Positions 20,715 through 60,993 of a DNA stretch of 64,000 nucleotides are shown in pieces. How positions within the stretch are numbered: position 1 is the stretch's first letter; the number at the start of each line of letters is the position of its first letter. The notes under the pieces were generated by a model. That model searched no databases. It saw only the letters and a program-made list of their open reading frames with translations, and was not told where the DNA came from. Origin of the DNA: an uncultured Gammaproteobacteria bacterium (GTDB lineage: Bacteria; Patescibacteriota; Microgenomatia; UBA8517); contig CAYSAY010000004.1 in the NCBI GenBank assembly GCA_964429215.1, positions 8,421 through 72,420 of the forward strand, in the 5' to 3' direction. A program made the translations under genes and the position numbers.

Positions 20715-23045
20715 ATGAGGCTGGCAAATAAGTTAGTAATTTTGGTTGAGTCTATTGTTGTGGTGGCTATAATTATAGGCGGTATCTCGACCTTTATAAT
20801 TTCAAGAAAAGTACTGATTGATAAAACTAAACAGCAACTAACTAGCATTTCTGTTTTAAAGGAAAACAATATAAAACGGTTTATTGAAGAAATAAAAGTA
20901 GAAATTGAATATTTAACAATTAATCCTAAAAGTAATAGTTTGTTTGTTAAATATATAAATTCAAACGGCCTAGATTATAGAGAAGAAGCATTTGACATAG
21001 TTCTTGATATTGTTAAACATAAAAAAATACTCCACAGTGTTTACTTAACTGATAATGAGGGTCGTGTGTTACTTTCTACACATTCTGAAGATGTAGGTAA
21101 GTTTAAATCAAATGAAGAATTTTTTGTAAATGGTAAAAAAAATACATATTTACAAAATTTTTATTTTGACACAACTATTAATAAAACTGCAATTTTAGTT
21201 TCTGTCCCAATATTAGACTCAGATGGAAACTTTTTAGGTGTGGTTGCCGGCAGAGTTAACACAGAAGAAATAAGTAATTTAATGACAGAAAGATCAGGTT
21301 TGGGAAAAAGCGGTGAAACTTTTTTAGTAAATTCATCTAATGTAGTAGTTACTGATTTACTGAAAGATCCAGATGCAGCTCTTAAAAAGACAATATTTTT
21401 ACCTCAAATAACGGAATGTCTTAGTGGTAAATCAAATTTTGAAGGTAGAATTGATTATACTAATGACAAAGTTTTAGGATATTGGTATTGGTTTCCCGAA
21501 TTAAATTCATGCCTAGTTTCAAAAATTGATAGTTCTGAAGCTTTTCTAGAGCTTAGGCAGGTTGTCTACATGCTATTAGTCACAGCTGGAATAATTGCAT
21601 TGTTGGTTGGTTTTATGGGTTATATGGTAGGTAAATTCATTGCTGCGCCTATTGTAGAAATGAGAAATGTAGCTAATCAAATTGAAAAGGGTAATTTGTC
21701 TGCTAGAACAAACATAAAATCAGGCGACGAAATCGGAGAATTATCAAATTCCTTAAATGATATGGCAGTTAATTTGGAATCATTATATTCTGGACTTGAA
21801 AAAAAGGTTGAGGATCGAACCAATGAGATTAATTCAAAATTGTTATTAATTGAAGATCAAAATAAAAATCTTGCTGAAAATAAATCAGCTATGCTTAATT
21901 TATTAGAAGACGCAAAAAAACTTGAAGATGAATTAAAAGCCGAGAAATTATCAGTTGAAAAGAAAGTTGATGAAAGGACAAAAGAAGTTGGCGAGGGAAA
22001 AGCAAAATTATTAGCTGCTATTGAGGCGCTTTCTAAAGCTTTTGTAATGATTGATTTAAATGGTGGAATAGTTTTGGTAAATGAAAATTTGAATAAAATA
22101 TTTAATACTGAAAAACAAAATTGGATGCTTTCTGATATTCAGGAGCAATTGGGAACAAGTTTTGATTTTGTTAAGGCGTATAAAAAAAATATTATAGAGA
22201 AGAAAAAGATAATTTATGACGATATCGCTTTTGGTTCAAGGGTTCTGCAAATTCGTTTTAGTCCTGTCTTTAGTGATAGAACAGGTGAAAAAATAATTTC
22301 AGGAATTTTAGCCATAATAGGTGATTTAACTGATGAAAAAGTGCTAGAAAGATCTAAAGATGAGTTTTTCTCAATTGCTAGCCATGAGCTTAGAACTCCA
22401 CTTACAGCAATTCGTGGCAACACCTCAATGATACTTGATTATTATAAAGAACAAGTTAAAGATCCAGATTTAAATCAAATGGTTACAGATACACATGATG
22501 CAAGCATTAGGCTTATAGGGATTGTTAATGACTTTTTAGACCTCTCACGGCTAGAACAAAAAAGAATGGAATACAAAAAGAGTGAATTCAAAATACTTGA
22601 TGTTGTACTTTCGGTGATTAAAGAATTAAAGGTGTCTGCTGAAGAGAAAGGTGTTAAATTGAATACTGATGTTGATAAAGATGTAAAGGTTAATGCAGAT
22701 CCTGATAAAGTTAAGCAAATACTATTTAACATCATTGGTAATTCATTAAAATTCACAGAAAAAGGAAGTGTGAATATTTCATCTTCTGTTGAAGACAATA
22801 AAATTAAAATTAGTGTTACAGATACAGGTGTTGGTATATCAAAAGAGAGCCAATCCTTATTGTTCAGGAAGTTTCAGCAGGCTGGAAAGTCCACAATTAC
22901 TAGAGATGGCGCCAAAGGCACTGGCCTTGGTTTGTACATCTCAAAATTGATGATAGAGGGTATGGGAGGACAAATTGCACTAGAGAGTTCAGTTGAGGGT
23001 AAAGGTTCAGTATTTACATTTACATTGCCGGTGGCAATCAATTAG
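20715..23045 (+). CDS. sensor histidine kinase (TM, Cache-like, TM, HAMP, coiled coil, PAS, HisKA, HATPase)
   Basis: H-box FFSIASHELRTPLTAIRGN, G-boxes GTGLGLYISKLMIEGMGGQI; periplasmic domain between two TM helices. Confidence 0.85.
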   Translation: MRLANKLVILVESIVVVAIIIGGISTFIISRKVLIDKTKQQLTSISVLKENNIKRFIEEIKVEIEYLTINPKSNSLFVKYINSNGLDYREEAFDIVLDIVKHKKILHSVYLTDNEGRVLLSTHSEDVGKFKSNEEFFVNGKKNTYLQNFYFDTTINKTAILVSVPILDSDGNFLGVVAGRVNTEEISNLMTERSGLGKSGETFLVNSSNVVVTDLLKDPDAALKKTIFLPQITECLSGKSNFEGRIDYTNDKVLGYWYWFPELNSCLVSKIDSSEAFLELRQVVYMLLVTAGIIALLVGFMGYMVGKFIAAPIVEMRNVANQIEKGNLSARTNIKSGDEIGELSNSLNDMAVNLESLYSGLEKKVEDRTNEINSKLLLIEDQNKNLAENKSAMLNLLEDAKKLEDELKAEKLSVEKKVDERTKEVGEGKAKLLAAIEALSKAFVMIDLNGGIVLVNENLNKIFNTEKQNWMLSDIQEQLGTSFDFVKAYKKNIIEKKKIIYDDIAFGSRVLQIRFSPVFSDRTGEKIISGILAIIGDLTDEKVLERSKDEFFSIASHELRTPLTAIRGNTSMILDYYKEQVKDPDLNQMVTDTHDASIRLIGIVNDFLDLSRLEQKRMEYKKSEFKILDVVLSVIKELKVSAEEKGVKLNTDVDKDVKVNADPDKVKQILFNIIGNSLKFTEKGSVNISSSVEDNKIKISVTDTGVGISKESQSLLFRKFQQAGKSTITRDGAKGTGLGLYISKLMIEGMGGQIALESSVEGKGSVFTFTLPVAIN

Positions 23046-23155
23046 TTAATAATGAATAGTGAATAGTTAATAATTGGAACATAACAAAAACTAAGAATTA
23101 ATAATGAATAAGCAAAGCTTGCCACTTCGTGGTAGTGAAGAGTTAATAATTTGAA
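23041..23155. repeat. left flank of four-helix-bundle gene: direct copies of AGTTAATAAT(T)
   Basis: Copies at 23043, 23065, 23097 (variant) and 23141; inverted copies are in the right flank at 23504..23545. Confidence 0.5.
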
Positions 23156-23503
23156 ATGATAACAATACAGGATAGATCGTTTAAGTTTGGAGTTGAGATT
23201 GTTAAATTAACATTTTTATTACCCAAATCTCCAGCTGGATATGCATTGGCCAGTCAAATTGTTCGGTCTGGCACTTCGATTGGTGCAAATATTGAAGAAG
23301 CTCAAGGCGCTTCATCAAAGAAGGATTTTGTAAATAAGATGCAAATTTCACTCAAGGAAGCTCGAGAAACTTACTTTTGGCTAAAAATATTAAGAGAATC
23401 TAAATTGGTCCAGTTGGAAAATATAAGCTACTTATTGCAAGAGTGTGAAGAAGTGGTTAAAATCTTAATAACAATAGTCAAAAATTCAAAACTTAATAAA
23501 TAA
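23156..23503 (+). CDS. four-helix-bundle protein (23S rRNA intervening-sequence protein family, TIGR02436-like)
   Basis: FKFGVEIVKLTFLLP...SGTSIGANIEEAQGASSKKDFVNKMQISLKEARETYFWLKI is the typical family signature. Confidence 0.8.
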   Translation: MITIQDRSFKFGVEIVKLTFLLPKSPAGYALASQIVRSGTSIGANIEEAQGASSKKDFVNKMQISLKEARETYFWLKILRESKLVQLENISYLLQECEEVVKILITIVKNSKLNK

Positions 23504-23545
23504 TTTTTGTTTTAATTATTAACTATTAATTATTAACTATTAATT
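23504..23545. repeat. right flank: tandem AATTATTAACT(A) copies, the reverse complement of the left-flank AGTTAATAATT
   Basis: ttaattattaactattaattattaactattaattatg read directly from sequence. Confidence 0.5.
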
Positions 23546-23947
23546 ATGTCAACCAAAGTATTAATTGTTGAGGATGACCCATTGATGAGTCGGATGTATC
23601 AAAAGATATTCACTTTTGAAGGATATGAAGTTGTCATGGCTGGAAACGGCGAAGATGGCTTGGAAAAAGCAAAGAAAGACACCCCAACTATAATTCTTCT
23701 TGATGTCATGATGCCTAAGATGAACGGTTTGGAGATGTTGGAGAAATTAAAACTTGATCCAAAAAGTAAATCCATTCCCGTTATTATGCTCACTAATTTA
23801 GCAGGAGAAAAGGATGCAGAAAATGCATTGTCTAAAGGAGCTGTAAAGTATATTGTAAAGTCTGAATATGAACCCAAACAAGTTGTTGATATGGTCAAAG
23901 AAATTTTGGCAGGTTATACCAGAGATTTAGTTCCAGAAGCAAAATAA
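23546..23947 (+). CDS. response regulator, receiver domain only
   Basis: KVLIVEDDPLM...ILLDVMMPKMNG...; 133 aa with no output domain. Confidence 0.85.
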   Translation: MSTKVLIVEDDPLMSRMYQKIFTFEGYEVVMAGNGEDGLEKAKKDTPTIILLDVMMPKMNGLEMLEKLKLDPKSKSIPVIMLTNLAGEKDAENALSKGAVKYIVKSEYEPKQVVDMVKEILAGYTRDLVPEAK

Positions 23948-34820: not shown

Positions 34821-35210
34821 TTTCCGCGTTCTTTTCTTTAGCCTCGAATTATATACATTATACCGAGGTATACTAATATTAATATATACATGGGGTATGT
34901 CAACCCCGATTTAATCGGGGTCAAGAGGCTAAATAAATTTATTGTAAATAATTACAAATACATAGTTTCACACAACTTATAACAAAATTACCGCAAGCTA
35001 ATTTATCGACTTAAATATATCAGACAGTACCAAGTACATAGTGCATAGTACAAAGATAATCATCTATAGGTTGTAAATTTACGTGCCTGAGCTCTCAAAA
35101 AATCACAAATGCGGTAATTTGCGGAGAATAAAAATGGCGTTTATTAATTACTTCAAGAGTGCGGAAATCATTTTTTAACTGAAGAATATGAGGAATATAA
35201 TGTAGGTGAT

Positions 35211-37177: not shown

Positions 37178-38182
37178 TTACTTAGGTAAATTATCTTTGA
37201 ATTTATTCTTTAGGGCTTCAAGCTCTGAGATTTCTTCTTCAAGTTTTTCTTCAAGTACAACTTGTCTTGCTTTAACCTTTTGTGAGATTAAGAATGCTAC
37301 AAACCCTATGATTAATATTGTAAATATTACAAGTAAGATTACAGTTACAGGAACTATCCAAATAAATCTTGTTTCAGTTAGTGCTTTGCCACTCTCACCA
37401 TAGTTTGCAGTTAATTCAACAGCATATTTACCAAACATCCATTGTTTACCTATTTTTGATTCATAAGCTCTCTTTGCACTAGGGAAAATGTTGTAGTCAT
37501 CAATTGTAACTCTTGAAACTTCTTTACCCATCCAGTCAGTTAGAGTAATTTGACCCTTAGGATTTATGTGGTAACCACCTTGATTTAAGATATCAAAGCT
37601 AACTTTAACTGGTCCGAATTCAAGGAAACTTGGAACTTTAAATTTGTCTATAAATGCGTATTCAACTACTGGTCCATTAACTCTAATGCTCAAAAGTCCA
37701 ACTATTCTAGGTGCTACTGCAGTCTGGCTTCCATCAGCATCTGCTGTCTGTGATAGTTGCCCTGTTTGTTCGAATATAATTGCTACATATTTTCCACCCG
37801 GTTTTGCGTCATTAGGAACTTTAACTTTAAAATTTACCTTTAAAACGTCACCTGATGCAATTGATGCACGGTCATAAGGTAATTCCACCCAATCGTTTGG
37901 TTGGTCTTCAAGTAGGATAGGCGAGCCATCATTTCCTGTAACTATAAAATCAACAGCTTTAATATTTCCTGAAATTGGTGAAATTGATTCGTTAAAAAAC
38001 TTAATCTGTAAATTCTCAGACTTTCCTGGGTCAATAGCTACTGTTTGTCTTGCTGGTGCTACAACTAAAGGAATTCTTGCCTGGGCAAGAGATTCCTTAG
38101 TTAATAATGAAAAGTTAATAGTTAATAATGCAAACACGAAAACTGCAATTGCAATTGTTTTATTGTTTTTTAATTTTTTCAT
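37178..38182 (-). CDS. cell-surface protein: signal peptide, beta-rich ectodomain, C-terminal TM anchor and cytoplasmic coiled coil
   Basis: N-terminal signal, C-terminal WIVPVTVILLVIFTILIIGFVAFLI, then charged coiled coil. Confidence 0.5.
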   Translation of the reverse strand: MKKLKNNKTIAIAVFVFALLTINFSLLTKESLAQARIPLVVAPARQTVAIDPGKSENLQIKFFNESISPISGNIKAVDFIVTGNDGSPILLEDQPNDWVELPYDRASIASGDVLKVNFKVKVPNDAKPGGKYVAIIFEQTGQLSQTADADGSQTAVAPRIVGLLSIRVNGPVVEYAFIDKFKVPSFLEFGPVKVSFDILNQGGYHINPKGQITLTDWMGKEVSRVTIDDYNIFPSAKRAYESKIGKQWMFGKYAVELTANYGESGKALTETRFIWIVPVTVILLVIFTILIIGFVAFLISQKVKARQVVLEEKLEEEISELEALKNKFKDNLPK

Positions 38183-39723: not shown

Positions 39724-40655
39724 TTTTTTAAGATTGGTAATTTAAATATCCTACGATATCTAAATGTTGTCAATAGGAATATAAGTATCGCAACTAACAT
39801 AAATGGAAAAACGTAAGTCACAGTTTCTGCTTTATAAATTTTAGTATCATCATCCATCTGAAATTCTAATTTATGGGTAATTTTACCTAAAAATATGTTA
39901 TGAGTTGCTTTGCATTCATCTAAGTTTTCATCTTTCAAACATAATAAATTTCTGTTTGATCCTGAAAGAATATTTAAGTTTGCAAGCTTTAAAGTTTCAT
40001 CACCAGAAATAATTTTGCCATTAGGTTTCCAAAATGAATTTCCATTGTTTCTTAAAACAAGGGTATAGGGTATAGGGTTTAGGAAGGAGTCGATGAGTTT
40101 AGGAGCTGTAAATTCAATAATTTCAGCAGATTTTTTAGGGTTACCATCTTTTGAAACTGTAACCAGTATGTTTGAACCTATTATAGTTTTATAAAAAGTA
40201 CTTGCCTGACCCAAAACATCTGTAGGGACTGTTGTCTCAATTATTAAAGTCAAAAAATGATCGGTTTCTTCAGTGCCTTCCGGTGGATTTATGGTTACTG
40301 TAAAATCAGTTCTGTTTCCGTTTTTAAGAGAGAAAGCATCTTGATTGAATTTAACCCAATCTGGAGCCACTTCGTCAGTAAGTTCAACTGTACCATCAGT
40401 TGAATCTGGGATAAAGTATAAAATTTTTGGAATTAAAATTACATCCCCACCATCGTTTGTTATAGTAAATACTTGTTTAATCTCTTTACCAGGAGCAATC
40501 ATAACCTCAAAAAGGGGAGGGGTGATAGAAAGATTTATTGCTTGAGCGCTAACTGTTTTAGGGTATAGGGTGTAGGGTATAGCGTATAAACAGGACAATA
40601 ATACAAATATTTTTATCAATCTAAACCCTAAACCCTTTTCCTTGTAGTTTTTCAT
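39720..40655 (-). CDS. cell-surface protein with signal peptide and C-terminal TM anchor
   Basis: N-terminal signal; C-terminal FPFMLVAILIFLLTTF followed by RYRRIFK. Confidence 0.5.
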   Translation of the reverse strand: MKNYKEKGLGFRLIKIFVLLSCLYAIPYTLYPKTVSAQAINLSITPPLFEVMIAPGKEIKQVFTITNDGGDVILIPKILYFIPDSTDGTVELTDEVAPDWVKFNQDAFSLKNGNRTDFTVTINPPEGTEETDHFLTLIIETTVPTDVLGQASTFYKTIIGSNILVTVSKDGNPKKSAEIIEFTAPKLIDSFLNPIPYTLVLRNNGNSFWKPNGKIISGDETLKLANLNILSGSNRNLLCLKDENLDECKATHNIFLGKITHKLEFQMDDDTKIYKAETVTYVFPFMLVAILIFLLTTFRYRRIFKLPILKK

Positions 40656-40656
40656 A

Positions 40657-41382
40657 TTAATAAGATGGTATTGCTATAAAAGTAATCACATTTTGATAAA
40701 CTCCACTAGGTTGTCCAGTTCCGATATTCACTTTATAAGTAATAGTAGCAGTTCTACTTCTTCCTACATTTCCAGAAGTCATAATTGTTGCAGGGCTTTC
40801 TGTGTTACTCCTATCAGCAAACTGCCTGTAATATGTTGAGTTGGTAAAGTCTGTAGATACATCATCCCCAGTCATGTTAAATCCAAACCCGTATTTGGCT
40901 GAAGATGTCCAGACTGCAGCTGCAGTCTCAGAGCAAGTAGTATCACAAAGAGTATCAATAATAGTTCCTGATCCTGTCCTTGTTTTTAATGGATTATTTT
41001 CAGAAGCTTTTACAGAATATCCTCCAGCTCCACCAGCAGAAACAACTATAGTTGAGGTTGTTGTAACTGGTGTATTTGGAGATAAAGTTCCAAAGTTCTT
41101 TTGAATGTCACTTATTGAAAATGAAAATGGAATAATCGAATTTATGTATTGGAAACCTGCCTTAACTCTGTATCCTGTCGATGAATATTCTCCCGGTCCT
41201 GTTTGTCCTAGCGTCGTATTTAATCTGTAATTAGAGGAAGTTGGAATCCCTGCACCAGAGTTAAAATTAGGAAATATAATACGGTAGTTTGCGGACTCAA
41301 CTCTTTCCTGTGCGTAGACAGAAAAAGTACTAAGAACTAAGTACAAAGTACTTAGAAAAAGAATTTTAAGATTTTTTCTCAT
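40657..41382 (-). CDS. secreted protein sharing its C-terminal domain with the 497-aa protein
   Basis: Signal peptide plus paralogous C-terminal ~60 aa. Confidence 0.5.
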   Translation of the reverse strand: MRKNLKILFLSTLYLVLSTFSVYAQERVESANYRIIFPNFNSGAGIPTSSNYRLNTTLGQTGPGEYSSTGYRVKAGFQYINSIIPFSFSISDIQKNFGTLSPNTPVTTTSTIVVSAGGAGGYSVKASENNPLKTRTGSGTIIDTLCDTTCSETAAAVWTSSAKYGFGFNMTGDDVSTDFTNSTYYRQFADRSNTESPATIMTSGNVGRSRTATITYKVNIGTGQPSGVYQNVITFIAIPSY

Positions 41383-41741: not shown

Positions 41742-44219
41742 ATGATATACAACCACAAAACAGTTGAAAAGAAGTGGCAAGAAAAGTGGGAGAAGGATGG
41801 ACTCTATACCCCAGATATAAAAAATACCAAGTCAAAAGACACTTTCTACAACTTATGGATGTTTCCATATCCTTCTGCAGAAGGTCTACATGCAGGTCAC
41901 GCCTTTGCCTCAACAGGAAGTGATATCTATGGAAGATTTATGAGAATGAATGGTAAAACAGTCTTTCAGCCTATTGGCTATGATTCATTTGGGATACACA
42001 GCGAAAACTATGCAATTAAAATTGGAGAAAACCCCCACGAAGTAGTGAAAAGAACAACTGCAAACTATGAATTACAAATGAGAGCCTTGGGTCATGGCTA
42101 TGACTGGACTAGAACAGTGACCACTTCTGATAGTAATTATTATAGATGGACACAGTGGCTGTTTGTCGAAATGTATAAGGCTGGTCTTGCCTACAGGAAA
42201 AATGCAGAAGTAAACTTTTGCCCTAGTTGTAAAACAGTTCTTGCTGATGAGCAAGTAATGACCCCAAAGCAAGCAGGTAAAGAGCCAAAAGACAAAGACG
42301 GAAATATTGTTCCAGATAGTGATGAGCTAAAAGTCTGCGAGAGATGTGGAACAATTGCAGAAAAAAGAAACTTGGATCAATGGTTTTTCAAAATTACAGA
42401 TTATGCAGACAGGTTGTTATCAGGACTTAATGAAATTGATTGGAGTCCAAGAGTTGCCATGGCGCAAAAAGAGTGGATAGGTAAAAAAGAAGGTGTAAAA
42501 ATAAATCATAAGGTAAAAGATTTGGACATAACGTTAACTGCATTCAGTGCATATCCGGCATGGCTTTTTGCAGACACCTTTTTGGTAGTTGCCCCAGAAC
42601 ATCCAATTGTTTCTGAGTTGGTAAGAGGTACTAAGTTTCAGATTGATGTAGAAAAATTTGTTGAAAATTTCAAAAAAAACAAAAACAGTAGGGGTAGTAA
42701 ATTGGACGATAAAGAAGGAATTTTTACAGGTAGGTTTGTAATAGATCCATTTAATGGAATAGAAATGCCAGTATATCTTGCAAACTTTGCATTAATGGGT
42801 TTTGGAACGGGTATTATAAGATGTTCTGCACATGACCCTAGAGATTATGAATTTGCAAAGAAATACGATATTGAGTTAAAAGAAATAGTTGAAAGAACTG
42901 ATCCAGAATTACCTGTTAACGCACACACTAATGAGGGAAACCTAAAAGATTCAGGTCTTTTTACGAATAAATCAATAACTCCAAAGTTAATTTCTGAAAT
43001 GCTTGATTGGATTGAGAATCAAAAAATAGGTGAAAGAAATACAAATTATCATCTTCGTGATTGGTTAGTCAGTCGTCAAAGATACTGGGGTCCACCAATC
43101 CCAATGATTAATTGTTCTAAATGTGGCTGGCAAGTAGAAGAAAATTTACCAGTTTTATTACCTGATATAAAAGACTATCAACCTGAAGGAAATGGTAGAG
43201 GTCCTTTGGCGAATCATCCAGAGTTTTTTGAGGTCAAATGTCCAAGTTGTGGAGGTGATGCAAAAAGGGAAACTGATGTAATGGATACATTTGTTGATTC
43301 AAGCTGGTATTTCTTGCGTTATCCATCGGTAGATTTGGACAATAACGCCTTCGATAAAGAAATTAGCAAAAATTGGCTTCCAGTTGATTTATATTTTGGA
43401 GGCGCAGAACATTCCGTACTTCATTTAATGTATGCAAGGTTTGTAAATATGGTTATGAAGGATAGGGGATATCTGGATCATGATGAACCATTTCCAAAGT
43501 TTTTTGCTCATGGTCTGATGATTAAAGATGGAGCAAAAATGAGTAAAAGTAGAGGTAATGTAATAAATCCCGACCAGTATGTAGAAAAGTATGGGTCTGA
43601 TACATTAAGACTATATGTGATGTTCATGGGACCTATGGATGGATATCCAGATTTTAGGGATTCAGGCATAGAAGGAATGAGCAAATTTATTAAAAGAATA
43701 TTGAATTTGTTTGATAAGCAAAGCTTGCCACTTCGTGGTAAAAAACCTACCAAAGATGATTTGCTAAGTAAGATGCATTTGACTATCAAAGCAGTAACAG
43801 ATGATATCAAGCAATTTAAGTACAATACATCGATTGCTAAAATCATGGAATTTGTTAATGAGCTTACTAAGTACAAAGTACTAAGTACTAAGTACTTGGC
43901 TGTGCTTACACAACTATTAGCCCCATTTGCACCTCATATTGCAGAAGAGCTTTGGAGTGAAGTATTAAAGCAAAAGGGATCAGTCCACCTTTCGTCTTGG
44001 CCAGAATATGATGAAAAATACTTAAAGAGCGAAACGATAACAATAGCAATTCAAGTAAATGGAAAGTTAAGATCAACAGTTACAGTTAGTAACAACGCTG
44101 ACAAAGAAAGTATTATTAGCCTTGCAAAATCTGATGAAAAAATGAAAACATGGATTGAAGGTAATGAAATTAAAAAAGAAATCTTCGTTGCTGGAAAATT
44201 AGTTAACTTTGTAATATAA
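41742..44219 (+). CDS. leuS: leucyl-tRNA synthetase
   Basis: HAGHAFASTGSDIYGRF (HIGH-type), KMSKSRGN, editing-domain and anticodon-binding regions (LAPFAPHIAEELW). Confidence 0.95.
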   Translation: MIYNHKTVEKKWQEKWEKDGLYTPDIKNTKSKDTFYNLWMFPYPSAEGLHAGHAFASTGSDIYGRFMRMNGKTVFQPIGYDSFGIHSENYAIKIGENPHEVVKRTTANYELQMRALGHGYDWTRTVTTSDSNYYRWTQWLFVEMYKAGLAYRKNAEVNFCPSCKTVLADEQVMTPKQAGKEPKDKDGNIVPDSDELKVCERCGTIAEKRNLDQWFFKITDYADRLLSGLNEIDWSPRVAMAQKEWIGKKEGVKINHKVKDLDITLTAFSAYPAWLFADTFLVVAPEHPIVSELVRGTKFQIDVEKFVENFKKNKNSRGSKLDDKEGIFTGRFVIDPFNGIEMPVYLANFALMGFGTGIIRCSAHDPRDYEFAKKYDIELKEIVERTDPELPVNAHTNEGNLKDSGLFTNKSITPKLISEMLDWIENQKIGERNTNYHLRDWLVSRQRYWGPPIPMINCSKCGWQVEENLPVLLPDIKDYQPEGNGRGPLANHPEFFEVKCPSCGGDAKRETDVMDTFVDSSWYFLRYPSVDLDNNAFDKEISKNWLPVDLYFGGAEHSVLHLMYARFVNMVMKDRGYLDHDEPFPKFFAHGLMIKDGAKMSKSRGNVINPDQYVEKYGSDTLRLYVMFMGPMDGYPDFRDSGIEGMSKFIKRILNLFDKQSLPLRGKKPTKDDLLSKMHLTIKAVTDDIKQFKYNTSIAKIMEFVNELTKYKVLSTKYLAVLTQLLAPFAPHIAEELWSEVLKQKGSVHLSSWPEYDEKYLKSETITIAIQVNGKLRSTVTVSNNADKESIISLAKSDEKMKTWIEGNEIKKEIFVAGKLVNFVI

Positions 44220-50303: not shown

Positions 50304-51938
50304 ATGAATATTAAAAATAAAATTGCAAAAGTCTTAGAAGATGTCACCAGAATTAAAAATCCGAGTGTAGAGTTCACATCTGATGAAAAATTTGGCGACT
50401 ATTCATCCAATGTTGCCTTGAAAAATAAGGATCTGAACATTGATTCGATTGTGCAAAAAATCAATGAATTCAGTAATGATTTTACTGCAGAAAAATTGGG
50501 GAGATTTGTTAACTTTAGAGTTAAAAATGATGTACTAGTTGATAATTTGATGCAGATTGATAGTCAAAAAGAGAACTATGGAAAATCGGACTTTTTGAAA
50601 GGTAAAAAAATAATGTTTGAGTTTGCTCATCCAAATACTCACAAGGCATTCCATATTGGTCATTTGAGAAACATTACAACGGGAGAAGCATTATCAAGAA
50701 TGTATGAAGCAACTGGAACTAAGGTCGTTAGAGCAAATTATCAGGGTGACGTTGGACTGCATATTGCTAAAGCACTATATGGAATAGAAATAAAAGGTTT
50801 TGATGATCCAAAAGATATTAAAAAGAGAGCTGAATATTTAGGAAAAGTTTACGCAATTGGTGCAACAAAGTTTGAAGAGAGTGACATTGATAAAAATAAA
50901 GTCGCAGAAATTAATAAAAAAATATATGACAAGAGTGATGAAAAGATTACTAATTTATATAAAACAACAAGGCAATGGAGTCTAGACTATTTTGCGACAA
51001 TTTATGAAAGGGTCTATGTAAAGTTTGATAGGTTGTATTTTGAGAGTGAAACAGCTGAAAGTGGTAAGAAAATAGCATTAGAAGCACTTAAAAAAGGAAT
51101 TTTAGTAGAAAGTGATGGCGCTATTATTTTTGAAGGGACTAAATATGGGTTACACGACAGAGTTTTTATATCGAGTAAAGGTGTTCCTACATACGAGGCC
51201 AAAGATTTTGGGCTAGTTAAATTGCAACTTAAAGAATATAGCCCTGATAAAATAATACATGTTCTAGGACCCGAACAGCTTGGGTACACTTCAGTTATTT
51301 TTAAGGCACAGGAACTAGCAATTCCGGAAACAATTGGTAAGCAGTTACATCTTCCTTACGGTTGGGTAAAGCTTAAAGAGGGAAAAATGAGTTCGAGAAC
51401 GGGTAATGTTATTCTTGGTGAGTCCATACTTGATCAGGCAAAAGAAAATATATTAAAAAGTTACAAAATAGATGACGTAACTGCCGAAAAAATTGCAGTT
51501 GGTGCGGTGAAGTACTCGTTTTTAAAAAGCGGTTTAGGTCAAGAAATTGCATTTGATTTAAAAGAATCAATATCTTTAGAGGGTAATAGCGGACCATATT
51601 TGCAATACACAATTGCGCGTTGTAATAGTGTTGTTGCTCGTGGTAATGTTGTTAATCTAAACCTTGAACCTTTAACCCTAAACCCTGTGGAGTTATCAGT
51701 CTTGCGTAAATTATCCCTATTTGGTGAGATAATATCGACTGCAACAAAAAATTACTCACCAAACATTCTTTGCAATTATTTATATGAATTAGCCTCAAAA
51801 TATAATACTTTTTACAATGCTGAAAAGATTATTGGTGGAGAAAATGAGGAGTTTAAACTACTATTGACCAAATCAACTGCTCAAGTACTTAAAAATGGAC
51901 TTAATCTATTGGGAATTCAGTCTCCTGAGAAGATGTGA
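50304..51938 (+). CDS. argS: arginyl-tRNA synthetase
   Basis: HPNTHKAFHIGHLRN (HIGH), class I fold, C-terminal anticodon-binding domain, length 544 aa. Confidence 0.95.
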   Translation: MNIKNKIAKVLEDVTRIKNPSVEFTSDEKFGDYSSNVALKNKDLNIDSIVQKINEFSNDFTAEKLGRFVNFRVKNDVLVDNLMQIDSQKENYGKSDFLKGKKIMFEFAHPNTHKAFHIGHLRNITTGEALSRMYEATGTKVVRANYQGDVGLHIAKALYGIEIKGFDDPKDIKKRAEYLGKVYAIGATKFEESDIDKNKVAEINKKIYDKSDEKITNLYKTTRQWSLDYFATIYERVYVKFDRLYFESETAESGKKIALEALKKGILVESDGAIIFEGTKYGLHDRVFISSKGVPTYEAKDFGLVKLQLKEYSPDKIIHVLGPEQLGYTSVIFKAQELAIPETIGKQLHLPYGWVKLKEGKMSSRTGNVILGESILDQAKENILKSYKIDDVTAEKIAVGAVKYSFLKSGLGQEIAFDLKESISLEGNSGPYLQYTIARCNSVVARGNVVNLNLEPLTLNPVELSVLRKLSLFGEIISTATKNYSPNILCNYLYELASKYNTFYNAEKIIGGENEEFKLLLTKSTAQVLKNGLNLLGIQSPEKM

Positions 51939-52475
51939 TTAATTTTTAGGAATTATAGTTTCTCCAACTCTATCAACAACCCTTTGAAGTGGGTTAGTGT
52001 GTCTATTTTCAAGTTGCTCTGCAAGCTTTCTTTCTAAATATGAAACTTCAATAACTTTAAGCATTTCTTCAAGATCAGCATCATTTAGTTTAATTCCTTG
52101 TTTTTCTGCAATCTTGGTTAAAATCTGCAATATTTTTGTAATTTCTCGTTCTGATGTAATATTCACTTGCATATCAATCTCTTCTCGAAGATTACTAATA
52201 AAGCTTTGTCTGTTCTGACTCATAAGAACAATAAGAGTAAGTATGATTGCTTCCAAAGACACAATTGTTGTCATAAGAGGAAATGGAAAGGGATCAAGGA
52301 CTGGAAGCCCAGGAATTTTACCCATATTCATCATTATCCAAAATATAAAAAATAAAGTATTAAAAGTTAAAAAGGGGATACTGCCAAATAACGATGTCAA
52401 ATCATCTGCCAAGCGCACTGACCAAGATCTTTTTCTTAGTTCTTTGGCTTCAAATGACTGTATGATTTTGGACAT
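51939..52475 (-). CDS. DUF1003-family membrane protein (start taken at internal Met MSKIIQ; ORF extends to 52577)
   Basis: RKRSWSVRLADDLTSLFGSIPFLTFNTLFFIFWIMMN...DPFPFPLMTTIVSLEAIILTLIVLMSQNRQ matches the DUF1003 pattern. Confidence 0.6.
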   Translation of the reverse strand: MSKIIQSFEAKELRKRSWSVRLADDLTSLFGSIPFLTFNTLFFIFWIMMNMGKIPGLPVLDPFPFPLMTTIVSLEAIILTLIVLMSQNRQSFISNLREEIDMQVNITSEREITKILQILTKIAEKQGIKLNDADLEEMLKVIEVSYLERKLAEQLENRHTNPLQRVVDRVGETIIPKN

Positions 52476-52512
52476 AAGTAGTATATGGTATTTAGTATAT
52501 AGTATATAGGGA
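52476..52512. repeat. left inverted-repeat arm (GTAGTATATGGTATTTAGTATATAGTATATAGGGAGG) flanking the second four-helix-bundle gene
   Basis: The reverse complement of 52887..52925 reads GTATGTAGTATATAGTATATGGTACATAGGGGGAAC. Confidence 0.5.
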
Positions 52513-52532
52513 GGACAAAACAATAATACAAA

Positions 52533-52886
52533 ATGATAACGAAATTTACAGACTTGATTGCATGGAAAGAGGCACATAAATTAGTTTTAATGTCATATAA
52601 ATATTTGAATAAATTTCCAAAAAATGAAACATTTGCGCTATGTGATCAAATAAGAAGGTGTTCAGTTTCGATTAGTGCAAATATTGCAGAAGGATTTTCA
52701 AGACATGGTAAAAAAGAAAAGTCACAATTTTATTTTATTTCAAAAGGTTCATTAACTGAACTTGAGAATCATTTTTTAATTGCAAAAGATTTAGATTATA
52801 TTGATATTACAGAACTTAGAAACATGCAGGAACAAATGGAGCACGTTGGCAGGCTATTGACAGGATTAGTTCGTTCGGCAATTTAG
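52533..52886 (+). CDS. four-helix-bundle protein (TIGR02436-like), second copy
   Basis: IAWKEAHKLVLMSYKYLNKFPKNETFALCDQIRRCSVSISANIAEGFSRHGKKEKSQFYFISKGSLTE family signature. Confidence 0.8.
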   Translation: MITKFTDLIAWKEAHKLVLMSYKYLNKFPKNETFALCDQIRRCSVSISANIAEGFSRHGKKEKSQFYFISKGSLTELENHFLIAKDLDYIDITELRNMQEQMEHVGRLLTGLVRSAI

Positions 52887-52925
52887 CAGTTCCCCCTATG
52901 TACCATATACTATATACTACATACT
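52887..52925. repeat. right inverted-repeat arm of the four-helix-bundle cassette
   Basis: gcagttccccctatgtaccatatactatatactacatact, reverse-complementary to the left arm. Confidence 0.5.
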
Positions 52926-52934
52926 GTTTATACA

Positions 52935-54215
52935 ATGAATTATCATAAATCTATACTTAGTAACGGTCTTCGAGTAATCACAATTCCAATGCCTTCCCTT
53001 GAATCTGTAACAGTATCGGTGTGGATGAAAACAGGTTCAAGAAATGAAAATAAAAATAATAATGGGGTAAGTCACTTTTTGGAACATATGTTTTTTAAAG
53101 GAACAATTAATCGTCCAACTGCCAAACAAATTGCAGAAGAAATTGACCAAATCGGAGGGGTCCAAAATGCGGGAACTTCAAAAGAATATACAGAATATTA
53201 CATCAAGTGTCGTGCAGATAAAATTGAGATAGCATTTGATCTGCTCTCTGATATGACCCTAAATTCTCTTCTTGATGCCAAAGAAATAGAAAGAGAAAAG
53301 GGGACAATAATTGAAGAAATTAGAATGTATGAAGATACTCCAATGATGAATATCGGGGAAGTGTTTGAAGGTTTAATTTACGAGAATTCGCCACTCGGAA
53401 TGGACATTGCAGGTACAGAACAAACTGTTCAAGGAATGAAAAGAAGTGACTTCCTAAGTTATAGAAAATCATATTATGTACCAGAAAATATGATCATTAC
53501 TGTGGCTGGTGGAGTAACTGAAAAAGTATCAGTACACTTAGCTGAAAAATACTTTTCAAAACTTAAAAATCAAAATTCAAAAGAATTAGACTTTAAACCA
53601 GTATTTGAAAATAAACAGAACGCAACAAAAATAAAGTTGCATAACAAAAAGAAAGAGCAAACTCATGTCATTTTAGGTTTCCTTGCAGATGGTAAAAATT
53701 ACAAATTTAAATATGCTCAGACTCTACTTGCCACAGTTTTAGGTGGGGGAATGAGTTCCAGAATGTTTACAGAGGTAAGTGAAAGAAGAGGTTTGGCATA
53801 TTCAATTAGAACATCAATGGATAGATACACTGATTGCGGATACATGGGAACATATGCCGGTCTTGATACTAAAAGAGCAGAGGAAGCAGTTAAAGTAATG
53901 CTTGATGAACATTACAAAATCACCGATCACCGTTCACAGATCACAGTTCACGAGTTGGCCAAATCCAAGGAGTTCTTAAAGGGTCATTTAGCCTTGGCTT
54001 TAGAAGATACCAGTGATGTATCGGGCTTTTTTGGAGATCAAGAACTATTTAGTCAAAAAGTTTTGACACCTGAAGAAGTGTTTAAATTAATTGACAAAGT
54101 AAACATGGACGAAGTAAATTTCGAGGCAAAAAGATTGTTTGTTCCAGAACGCCTAAACCTTGCAATTATTGGACCATATGAAAACGATGAAAAATTTAAG
54201 AAAATTTTAAAATAA
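52935..54215 (+). CDS. M16-family zinc peptidase (insulinase/pitrilysin-like)
   Basis: HFLEHMFFKGT inverted zincin motif HxxEH, downstream Glu region, ~420-aa two-domain length. Confidence 0.85.
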   Translation: MNYHKSILSNGLRVITIPMPSLESVTVSVWMKTGSRNENKNNNGVSHFLEHMFFKGTINRPTAKQIAEEIDQIGGVQNAGTSKEYTEYYIKCRADKIEIAFDLLSDMTLNSLLDAKEIEREKGTIIEEIRMYEDTPMMNIGEVFEGLIYENSPLGMDIAGTEQTVQGMKRSDFLSYRKSYYVPENMIITVAGGVTEKVSVHLAEKYFSKLKNQNSKELDFKPVFENKQNATKIKLHNKKKEQTHVILGFLADGKNYKFKYAQTLLATVLGGGMSSRMFTEVSERRGLAYSIRTSMDRYTDCGYMGTYAGLDTKRAEEAVKVMLDEHYKITDHRSQITVHELAKSKEFLKGHLALALEDTSDVSGFFGDQELFSQKVLTPEEVFKLIDKVNMDEVNFEAKRLFVPERLNLAIIGPYENDEKFKKILK

Positions 54216-59586: not shown

Positions 59587-59618
59587 ATGAAGAATTATAC
59601 TATATAATTAGCTTAAAT

Positions 59619-60671: not shown

Positions 60672-60870
60672 AGTAGTATATAGGGAGTGGTATATAGTAT
60701 ATTGGAGTCAAAACAAAACGAATGTTAGCAACTTGAGGATAACTCCTTAAAAGTGAAGCTAAGAATTGAACTATATTTTTATACATTTGTGTTAGTAATT
60801 AAAAATTAATAACGACATTATATGTCTATAGTAATTCACAATATACTATATACTATATACAATATACTTT
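60672..60870. repeat. MITE-like element with terminal inverted repeats of the AGTATATAGTATATTG family
   Basis: Left agtagtatatagggagtggtatatagtatattgg; right cacaatatactatatactatatacaatatact (reverse complement agtatattgtatatagtatatagtatattgtg). Same repeat family as the flanks of the gene at 52533. Confidence 0.4.
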
Positions 60871-60993
60871 TTCTTTATGCGGAATAAATACGGTAAATTT
60901 TTAAGTAAAATATTAAAATAAATTATAAAATTGTTAGAAATATAACAAGTAAATTGAATTTAGATAGTTAAAATTTGAACTTAGTAATAAAAT

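Follow-up and report, generated by a model that had tools for sequence, protein, structure and literature searches.

The intervening sequence (IVS) in the 23S rRNA of Coxiella is 428 nt long, contains an S23p open reading frame (ORF) enclosed by a terminal inverted-repeat stem of 28 bp, and is cleaved by RNase III in vitro (PMC4990558). The encoded protein belongs to PF05635 (23S_rRNA_IVP; TIGR02436; "S23p"), which is referred to here as the four-helix-bundle (4HB) family. This is a large family of unknown function whose genes are scattered in cas, accBC, nrdAB, and parAB operons as well as in rRNA genes. The motif GxxRxxxSxxxNxxE has been described for the family, and family ORFs have also been found inside cas loci (PMC3936711). 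In the candidate phyla radiation (CPR), 23S_rRNA_IVP ORFs occur in rRNA insertions (bioRxiv 10.1101/2024.02.27.582315). Heptanucleotide repeats form a second group of elements, and they are long-standing orphans of cyanobacterial, Xanthomonas, Beggiatoa, and here also CPR genomes. The cyanobacterial STRR (short tandemly repeated repetitive) sequences form 7-bp inverted hairpins between genes (PMC2670836). Each Xanthomonas genome carries ~186 GGGAATC arrays including 70–75 convergent pairs, for which polymerase slippage has been proposed (PMC4692102), and TAACTGA repeats adjoining start codons occur in Beggiatoaceae, cyanobacteria, and Bacteroidetes (PMC4679880). Here we analyzed a 64,000-nt stretch of DNA (the window) from a Woesebacteria/Microgenomates relative, in which two 4HB genes lie between protein-coding genes and are each bracketed by inverted arrays of tandem heptamers. 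This phased and polar bracketing is found in five phyla and joins the IVS protein family to the heptanucleotide repeats.

Heptamer arrays bracketing the 4HB genes

The arms of the 52.5-kb cassette form an inverted repeat of 43 nt with 79% complementarity, in which inner sub-alignments reach 94–95%. TAGGGAGG closes the left arm and CCCCCTATG opens the right arm. Tandem Repeats Finder (TRF), which was used for all tandem-repeat calls, reports 4.4 copies of a period of 7 at 52479–52509 within the 5′ arm. This arm abuts the start codon of a divergent DUF1003 gene (CAT, 52473–52475), and the start codon of an M16 peptidase gene at 52935 lies 3 nt past the 3′ arm. The inverted repeat of the 23-kb cassette (23043–23084/23505–23546) has 42 nt and is 81% complementary. 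Its 5′ arm begins where the upstream gene, a histidine kinase typed by Pfam, has its stop codon, and a second, partial copy of this arm occupies 23133–23155, immediately before the ATG. To the left of the gene, AGTTAATAATT occurs twice, within the repeats 23057–23079 and 23133–23155; to the right, AATTATTAACT occurs twice as a 14-nt tandem repeat at 23512–23539. The 3′ arm overlaps the ATG at 23546 of a gene that was labeled as a response regulator in a preliminary description of this DNA. A third inverted pair (60675–60704/60839–60868) follows mreB. It has 30 nt, 80% complementarity, and a perfect 13-nt core (60690–60702/60848–60860), and no ORF of at least 90 aa is listed between mreB and 60994.

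Much of this anatomy had been recognized in the preliminary description. The inverted repeats that it placed around 52533..52886 were recovered with correct coordinates and end sequences, and so were the direct copies on the left of the 23-kb gene with their doubled reverse complement on the right. The pair in the ORF-less spacer after mreB indeed belongs to the same repeat family. The description had composed the arms of AGTATATAG/GTATAT units; the periodicity is real, but the arms are tandem heptamer arrays and not unique terminal repeats. Specifically, all six arms of the window have a TRF period of 7, with periods of 7 and 14 being seen. They are arrays of 4–5 tandem heptamers, which are of the TAGTATA type at 52.5 and 60.7 kb and of the TAGTTAA type at 23 kb, and they are not transposon terminal repeats. 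With up to two mismatches, TAGTATATAGTATA has 12 matches in the window versus 1.23 expected, a number reached by 0 of 100 shuffles. Aside from one weak site at 59596, these matches are confined to the 52.5- and 60.7-kb elements, and the motif is hardly found in 1.33 Mb of DNA from other CPR loci. The TAGTTAATAATTAA motif of the TAGTTAA type is less specific, with 20 matches versus 4.5 expected, some of which fall within coding sequence. The interiors of the two sites sharing the TAGTATA unit do not align. The arms are predicted to form the closing stem at 52.5 kb (z −3.5), at 23 kb (z −3.3), and after mreB (z −5.3), in the minimum-free-energy (MFE) fold as well as in the centroid fold.

A metagenome scan retrieved 80 CPR loci with 4HB genes 50–85% identical to the window gene (compared loci and contigs are designated by L-numbers). 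In nearly all of them, an upstream array extends to the ATG, which it frequently takes in, and a reverse-complement array starts from the stop codon. The flanks of 79 of the 4HB genes were compared with those of 148 control ORFs taken from the same contigs. The lag-7 self-identity of the flanks is 0.58/0.52 for 4HB genes and 0.31/0.29 for controls (p = 1e-24 and 2e-19), and the median inverted-repeat scores are 14 and 6, respectively (p = 3e-23). Periodicity of the two flanks together is seen in 25% of the 4HB genes and in 0% of the controls. Arrays are 13- to 15-fold enriched beside 4HB genes relative to the controls, and the layout is statistically specific to this gene family. Arm pairing has its register peak at 0 mod 7, which places the A of the ATG opposite the T of the stop codon. 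The polarity is fixed as well: 52 of 79 loci have a G-rich 5′ arm and a C-rich 3′ arm and no locus has the reverse (0/79), as compared with 27 versus 23 among the controls. The cassettes sit tightly in spacers of ~15–60 nt, about one array long, and their neighbors are mostly co-directional, in 65 of 74 cases upstream and 57 of 68 downstream as raw counts.

The units themselves vary by locus (xAGTATx, GAATxxx, GTAGxxx, GATTxxx, AGTACxx), and the two arms of a locus match each other. Each unit consists of a conserved core of 4–5 nt and 2–3 free positions. Unit types cluster on the 4HB protein tree, showing that unit and protein are inherited together. The predicted pairing energy of cognate arms is −23.1 kcal/mol, versus −18.7 kcal/mol for non-cognate arms of the same unit family (p = 1e-5). 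Among individual loci, the 4HB gene at L152 2510 has AGTAC-type arms, and a divergent 4HB gene at L036 3356–3784 is accompanied by more than 10 copies of an 11-nt unit, GAAACTAATGG, with inverted copies downstream. Several CPR cassettes (L103, L125, L175, L177) lie within 20–70 nt of tRNA or 5S rRNA genes. A search for rRNA-embedded 4HB genes gave none among 20 loci, only adjacent tRNA and 5S genes. In L106, L109, and L122, distinct 4HB genes come after an ORF, 171 aa long in L109, in which integrase-type SAM-like N-terminal domains are repeated. These 4HB genes have an upstream array only, and similar sequence resumes past the gene. An intron-like insertion into an integrase-like gene was considered for these three loci and rejected, as the 4HB gene merely follows the 171-aa ORF. 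Two contigs carrying the 23-kb 4HB gene (L194, L195) stop 39 nt past its stop codon, within the downstream array. Hence, the arrays break short-read assemblies at 4HB genes, which is of practical consequence.

The same array–ORF–array layout, built from unrelated GC-rich units, is present in Cyanobacteria, Azospirillum, Gemmatirosa, and Xanthomonas, and is conserved across five phyla. The units are (TCAGGAG)n, (GTAGGGA)n, and (GGGAAAA)n in Nostoc, (GGGTGTA)n in Calothrix, (AAGGGAA)n in Geminocystis, (GACRGAG)n in Azospirillum, and (CCTCCTG)n in Gemmatirosa. Picosynechococcus has an 8-nt unit, and its cassette lies between cmr2 and cmr3. The cassette is located between cas6 and cas4 in Anabaena and Pseudanabaena, and between nrd genes in N. 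edaphicum. In Xanthomonas, GGGAATC arrays and their inverse lie on either side of the ortholog of the crystallized XCC0516, which is located between accB and accC. Non-CPR cassettes are wedged into the conserved operons cmr2–cmr3, cas6–cas4, nrd alpha/beta, parA–parB, and accB–accC (L181, L190, L192, L186, L182, L197, L200).

Both window genes encode clear family members. Against the PF05635 gathering cutoff of 33.8 bits, the 52.5-kb product scores 118.7 bits (E = 1.7e-34) and the 23-kb product 89.7 bits (E = 1.8e-25). Homology of the window 4HB protein to XCC0516 covers residues 8–114 (phmmer, E = 3.7e-16). The family motif GxxRxxxSxxxNxxE is present in the 4HB protein alignment with Gln39, Arg42, Ser46, Asn50, and Glu53 invariant, and the polar helix face QxxRxxxSxxxNIxE is conserved. 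The 2GSC entry of XCC0516 contains five chains of one sequence, and the structure has been described as a homopentameric toroid (PMC4990558). In the Pfam scan, PF05635 is the sole domain of the cassette cargo, with no transposase-like, recombinase, or nuclease domain. Plasmid homologues were found by tblastn in 24 records, mostly cyanobacterial, and no phage homologues of the 4HB gene were found. A longer PF05635 paralogue of ~179 aa lies downstream of a PEGA gene in three relatives (L007 2015–2554, L015 2299–2835, L034 7295–7864), and heptamer arms were not seen around it in any of these three. The features of the window are listed in Table 1.

Table 1. Features of the two 4HB cassettes and the ORF-less element in the window.
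Feature	Position	Strand	Description
4HB gene 1	52533..52886	+	117 aa, PF05635; closest solved relative XCC0516 (PDB 2GSC)
5′ arm, 52.5 kb	52474..52516	+	TAGTATA TGGTATT TAGTATA TAGTATA TAGGGAG; inner end G-rich
3′ arm, 52.5 kb	52889..52931	+	CCCCC, then inverted heptamer array of TATACTA type
4HB gene 2	23156..23503	+	115 aa, PF05635; 23% identical to gene 1
5′ arm, 23 kb	23043..23084	+	TAGTTAA TAATGAA TAGTGAA TAGTTAA TAATTGG
3′ arm, 23 kb	23505..23547	+	(TTAATTATTAACTA) x2.6 = 5 heptamers, inverted relative to 5′ arm
5′ arm, ORF-less element	60672..60708	+	directly after mreB stop; TAGTATA-type heptamers, two G-rich units (TAGGGAG, TTGGAGT)
Interior, ORF-less element	60709..60834	.	boxes TTGAGGATAA and GTCTATAGTA, conserved in mreB-downstream spacer of relatives
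3′ arm, ORF-less element	60835..60870	+	inverted heptamer array, ATATACT x4

The DUF1003–M16 junction and the mreB-downstream spacer

The junction that holds the 52.5-kb cassette was compared among relatives. In L005 (84% protein identity) and L100, a 4HB gene with TAGTATA-type arrays lies between DUF1003 and M16 in the same orientation as in the window. In L007–L014 and L015–L018, whose 4HB proteins are 74–76% identical, the whole cassette is inverted with respect to the flanking genes. L020, with an M16 protein 81% identical, has a DUF1003–M16 gap of 27 nt with neither a 4HB gene nor repeats. The 22-nt spacer of L021 holds a 12-nt palindrome, TAGTATATACTA, which equals one unit of each arm, and one or two TATAC-type units remain before M16 in L022 and L023. 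L019 has a different gene upstream. Carriers and non-carriers occur in both of the two clades of the M16 tree. Across the clades, identity is 74–76% for 4HB, 77% for MreB, 53% for M16, 51% for DUF1003, and 50% for the PEGA protein, with proteins neighboring the cassette at 50–64%. This pattern fits an old resident cassette under purifying selection that was repeatedly lost with footprints and underwent a single flip between the inverted arms. Another possible history is that a palindromic site at the junction received insertions repeatedly. Near the same locus, the ArgS of the window (50304–51938) was compared with L005, L019, L020, and L021. It shares 37–41% identity with the ArgS of relatives that have an M16 at 80–82% identity, but 69% with that of L021, which is more distant; this points to a replacement of ArgS in some lineages.

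The spacer downstream of mreB has 270–440 nt and is ORF-less in all relatives (window 60672–60993; L020 15583–15870; L021 17793–18060; L022 14455–14891; L023 16115–16505). The boxes TTGAGGATAA, GTCTATAGTA, and TGCGGAAAAA are common to them, and a heptamer stretch that varies by genome separates the last two. The spacer matches no Rfam family, the only Rfam hits in the whole window being two tRNAs. It may contain an undescribed RNA or regulatory region. A decayed 4HB gene was considered for the 60.7-kb element and rejected. A six-frame hmmsearch at maximum sensitivity gave nothing, and the element aligns with the 52.5-kb cassette only in the arms. Inverted array pairs that lack an ORF but match a cassette of their genome in unit type are found in the window at 60.7 kb and in three copies in L038.

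Candidate explanations

The best reading, which we put forward tentatively and with slightly less than even confidence, is that of an IVS-like "ORF in hairpin loop" cassette outside rRNA. The 4HB loci might then be the intergenic counterpart of the ORF-bearing 23S rRNA IVS and the CPR version of a multi-phylum layout, a proposal about as likely to fail as to hold, or a little more so. In a transcript spanning the cassette, pairing of the arms would leave the ORF in a loop and put the start codon at the stem base. By analogy with the rRNA IVS, the stem could be cut by RNase III, which is specific for double strands. Such cleavage would separate the flanking messages and free a 4HB message with a short leader, so that insertion inside operons would be tolerated. 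Replication slippage, favoring 7-nt units genome-wide, may act together with arm-to-arm templated correction to keep the arrays alike; at the DNA level, these two processes would explain why the arms are concerted but imprecise. The cassette would be mainly vertically inherited. Hairpin-mediated deletion would account for losses that leave one or two units, and arm–arm recombination for flips.

Support for this reading comes from the cassette anatomy and its generality in CPR, the phasing, polarity, and cognate pairing of the arms, the clustering of unit types on the protein tree, the short spacers with mostly co-directional neighbors, the predicted closing stems, the layout in other phyla, the variation at the DUF1003–M16 junction, and the precedents of the Coxiella IVS and the cyanobacterial STRR hairpins. 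Several observations weigh against it. Divergent genes flank the 52.5-kb cassette, so that no transcript of an upstream gene would read through it. Register 0 pairs no better than register −7, which means that the complementarity rests on the constant unit core and not on position-specific covariation. The mismatches between arms comprise 37 G·U and 42 A·C, and the mismatch classes look random. Selection on the stem in the RNA sense was therefore rejected, as there is no G·U excess and a shift by 7 nt pairs equally well. The arrays are direct rather than inverted in L190, L128, L133, and L193. Furthermore, period-7 arrays are common in CPR DNA without 4HB cargo, even in coding regions, and a general mutational bias could lie behind part of the array pattern.

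Mobility had been suggested in the preliminary description, and it stands in part. In its full form, array–4HB–array would be the autonomous copy of a mobile system, the ORF-less pairs would be similar to MITEs (miniature transposable elements with inverted repeats), and the palindromic arrays would serve as ends or landing pads, allowing insertion in either orientation. The cassette is indeed a heritable unit found in many different gene contexts, and its presence, absence, and inversion at one orthologous junction, together with the ORF-less pairs of the same unit type within a genome, speak for movement. So do the ~70 inverted GGGAATC pairs per Xanthomonas genome (PMC4692102), the pair at accB–accC containing a 4HB gene. 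However, both clades have same-unit footprints at "empty" sites, and a cassette that was present ancestrally and then lost repeatedly explains these no less well than repeated insertion does. The identity of 4HB across clades is higher than that of its neighbors, but the vertically inherited MreB is just as conserved. No target-site duplication was found outside the arms at 52.5 or 23 kb or in comparison with the empty sites of L020 and L021, and the cargo has no recombinase, transposase, or nuclease domain. Identical 4HB proteins were never seen in two contexts: P0015 (15 contigs), P0043 (23 contigs), and the window protein (5 contigs) each have one context. The two copies of the window, being just 23% identical, give no sign of recent transposition. 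Taken as a whole, we regard a mobile system as unlikely.

A further explanation, to which we give somewhat less credence, is that the arrays are binding sites of the 4HB protein. A pentameric 4HB ring might bind tandem heptads of its own message or DNA with one unit per subunit, in a manner similar to TRAP, for autoregulation and possibly for control of other array-bearing genes. In its favor are the typical array of 4–5 units, the five chains of the 2GSC toroid, and the conserved polar helix face. The division of each unit into a conserved core and free positions, the overlap of the upstream array with the start codon, and the tracking of protein clade by unit type point the same way. The random arm mismatches without G·U bias also look as if the motif, not the pairing, matters. 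On the other hand, unit types mix within single arrays (e.g., GTAT and GAAT in L145, L148, and L162), arrays have anywhere from 2 to more than 15 units, and periods of 8 and 11 nt occur. In addition, arrays far outnumber 4HB genes, and a single-strand binder would miss the reverse-complement arm.

An extension of this idea, in our view just as doubtful, is that PF05635 4HB pentamers are the missing trans-acting partners of heptanucleotide repeats (STRR, GGGAATC, TAACTGA, and the CPR arrays), which they would bind or generate and maintain. The array–ORF–array loci would then be "autonomous" copies, and the far more numerous ORF-less hairpins dependents or regulatory targets. If true, this would assign a function both to an orphan protein family of very large size and to repeats unexplained since 1990.

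The arrays might also be a neutral by-product of a genome-wide bias toward heptamer slippage, piling up in unconstrained spacers, including those beside a dispensable gene. Period 7 is the dominant class of short tandem repeats, with 13 arrays in the window and 127 arrays in the 1.33 Mb of other CPR loci (L019–L098), versus 0–33 for the periods 5–12; most of these arrays are not beside a 4HB gene. Slippage has been proposed for such repeats (PMC4692102), and arrays occur in frame in housekeeping genes. Nevertheless, slippage by itself does not agree with the 13- to 15-fold enrichment beside 4HB genes, the periodicity of both flanks in 25% of them and in 0% of controls, the inverted polarity of 52 to 0, the phase-locking to start and stop codons, the locus-specific matching of arms, or the conservation in five phyla. 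We consider a purely neutral origin very unlikely.

The survey of period-7 arrays brought up further examples. The in-frame arrays, (CTAAACC)x4 in ArgS (window 51657–51686) and others in LeuRS (L033 16873–17644) and tgt (L037 2635–3343), add low-complexity peptide segments. The LeuRS and tgt arrays had been candidates for other cargo between longer inverted array pairs and were discarded as such when they proved to be in frame inside these genes. In the window, (TAGGGTA)x4 at 40557–40588 and (CTAAACC)x2 at 40621–40636 form an inverted pair ~33 nt apart near the 40655/40657 gene boundary. The TAGGGTA unit resembles the plant-type telomere repeat TTTAGGG, and a further (AGGGTAT)x3 is found at 40060–40083. 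At 38098–38127/38178–38221, inverted TAGTTAA- and TTAAGAA-type arrays straddle the start of the gene 37178–38182 on the minus strand. One arm encodes part of an N-terminal hydrophobic segment, and the unit family is that of the 23-kb cassette. AGTAC-type arrays without a nearby 4HB gene are located at 35033–35052, 41325–41363, and 43865–43896.

Finally, ordinary promoter or terminator low-complexity sequence is extremely improbable: although TAGTAT/TATACT resemble −10 hexamers (TANNAT) and a TATACT-like unit is retained immediately upstream of M16 at the "empty" sites, the 52.5-kb locus of the window has 4 promoter-like matches versus 4.1 expected and no terminator-like sites, the motif is limited to two loci in 64 kb and nearly absent from the other CPR DNA, and the units GGGTGTA, GACGGAG, and GGGAATC of other phyla are GC-rich and not −10-like, for which reasons −10 promoter arrays were rejected as a general explanation.

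Comparison with known systems

Avd, the accessory protein of diversity-generating retroelements (DGRs), belongs to a homologous family with the four-helix-bundle fold (PMC10053308). The window 4HB protein matches the bAvd profile PF22296 with 39.3 bits (E = 1e-9), below the cutoff of 40 bits. The genes adjoining the cassettes, namely DUF1003 and M16 peptidase at 52.5 kb and histidine kinase and response regulator (the latter as labeled in the preliminary description) at 23 kb, include no reverse transcriptase; no search was made for template and variable repeats. With MITEs and transposons ending in terminal inverted repeats, the cassettes share short inverted ends, a position between genes, relatives that keep these ends but have no ORF, and polymorphism in presence or absence. 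They differ in having no target-site duplication, no transposase, and, across the window and the compared contigs, no high-copy family of near-identical members, and in that their ends are internally repetitive and variable in length.

The cassettes resemble STRR sequences and the orphan heptamers (GGGAATC, GGGGA(C/T)T of Nostoc, TAACTGA) in their intergenic 7-nt tandem units, which are often arranged as convergent hairpin pairs and sometimes abut start codons. The unit flanking the Xanthomonas 4HB gene is identical to the published GGGAATC. PF05635 and S23p have zero matches in the two heptamer-repeat papers PMC4692102 and PMC4679880. Among the searchable papers, none was found that ties PF05635/S23p to heptamer or STRR repeats, and a description elsewhere is possible. 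Unlike STRR sequences, the arrays described here bracket one gene family, the window units TAGTATA and TAGTTAA are AT-rich and lineage-specific, and the host belongs to the CPR and not to the cyanobacteria.

A close likeness is also seen to the 23S rRNA IVSs of Leptospira, Coxiella, and Brucella. The window cassettes and these IVSs have in common the PF05635 ORF, the size (~450 versus 428 nt), the enclosing stem, and a sporadic distribution among relatives. In contrast to the IVSs, the window cassettes lie between protein-coding genes in a stretch without rRNA, and their arms consist of heptamers in tandem that keep phase with the start and stop codons. Excision by RNase III is a feature of the IVSs and would apply here by analogy. 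If this likeness holds, the concept of the intervening sequence would extend from rRNA to intergenic spacers.

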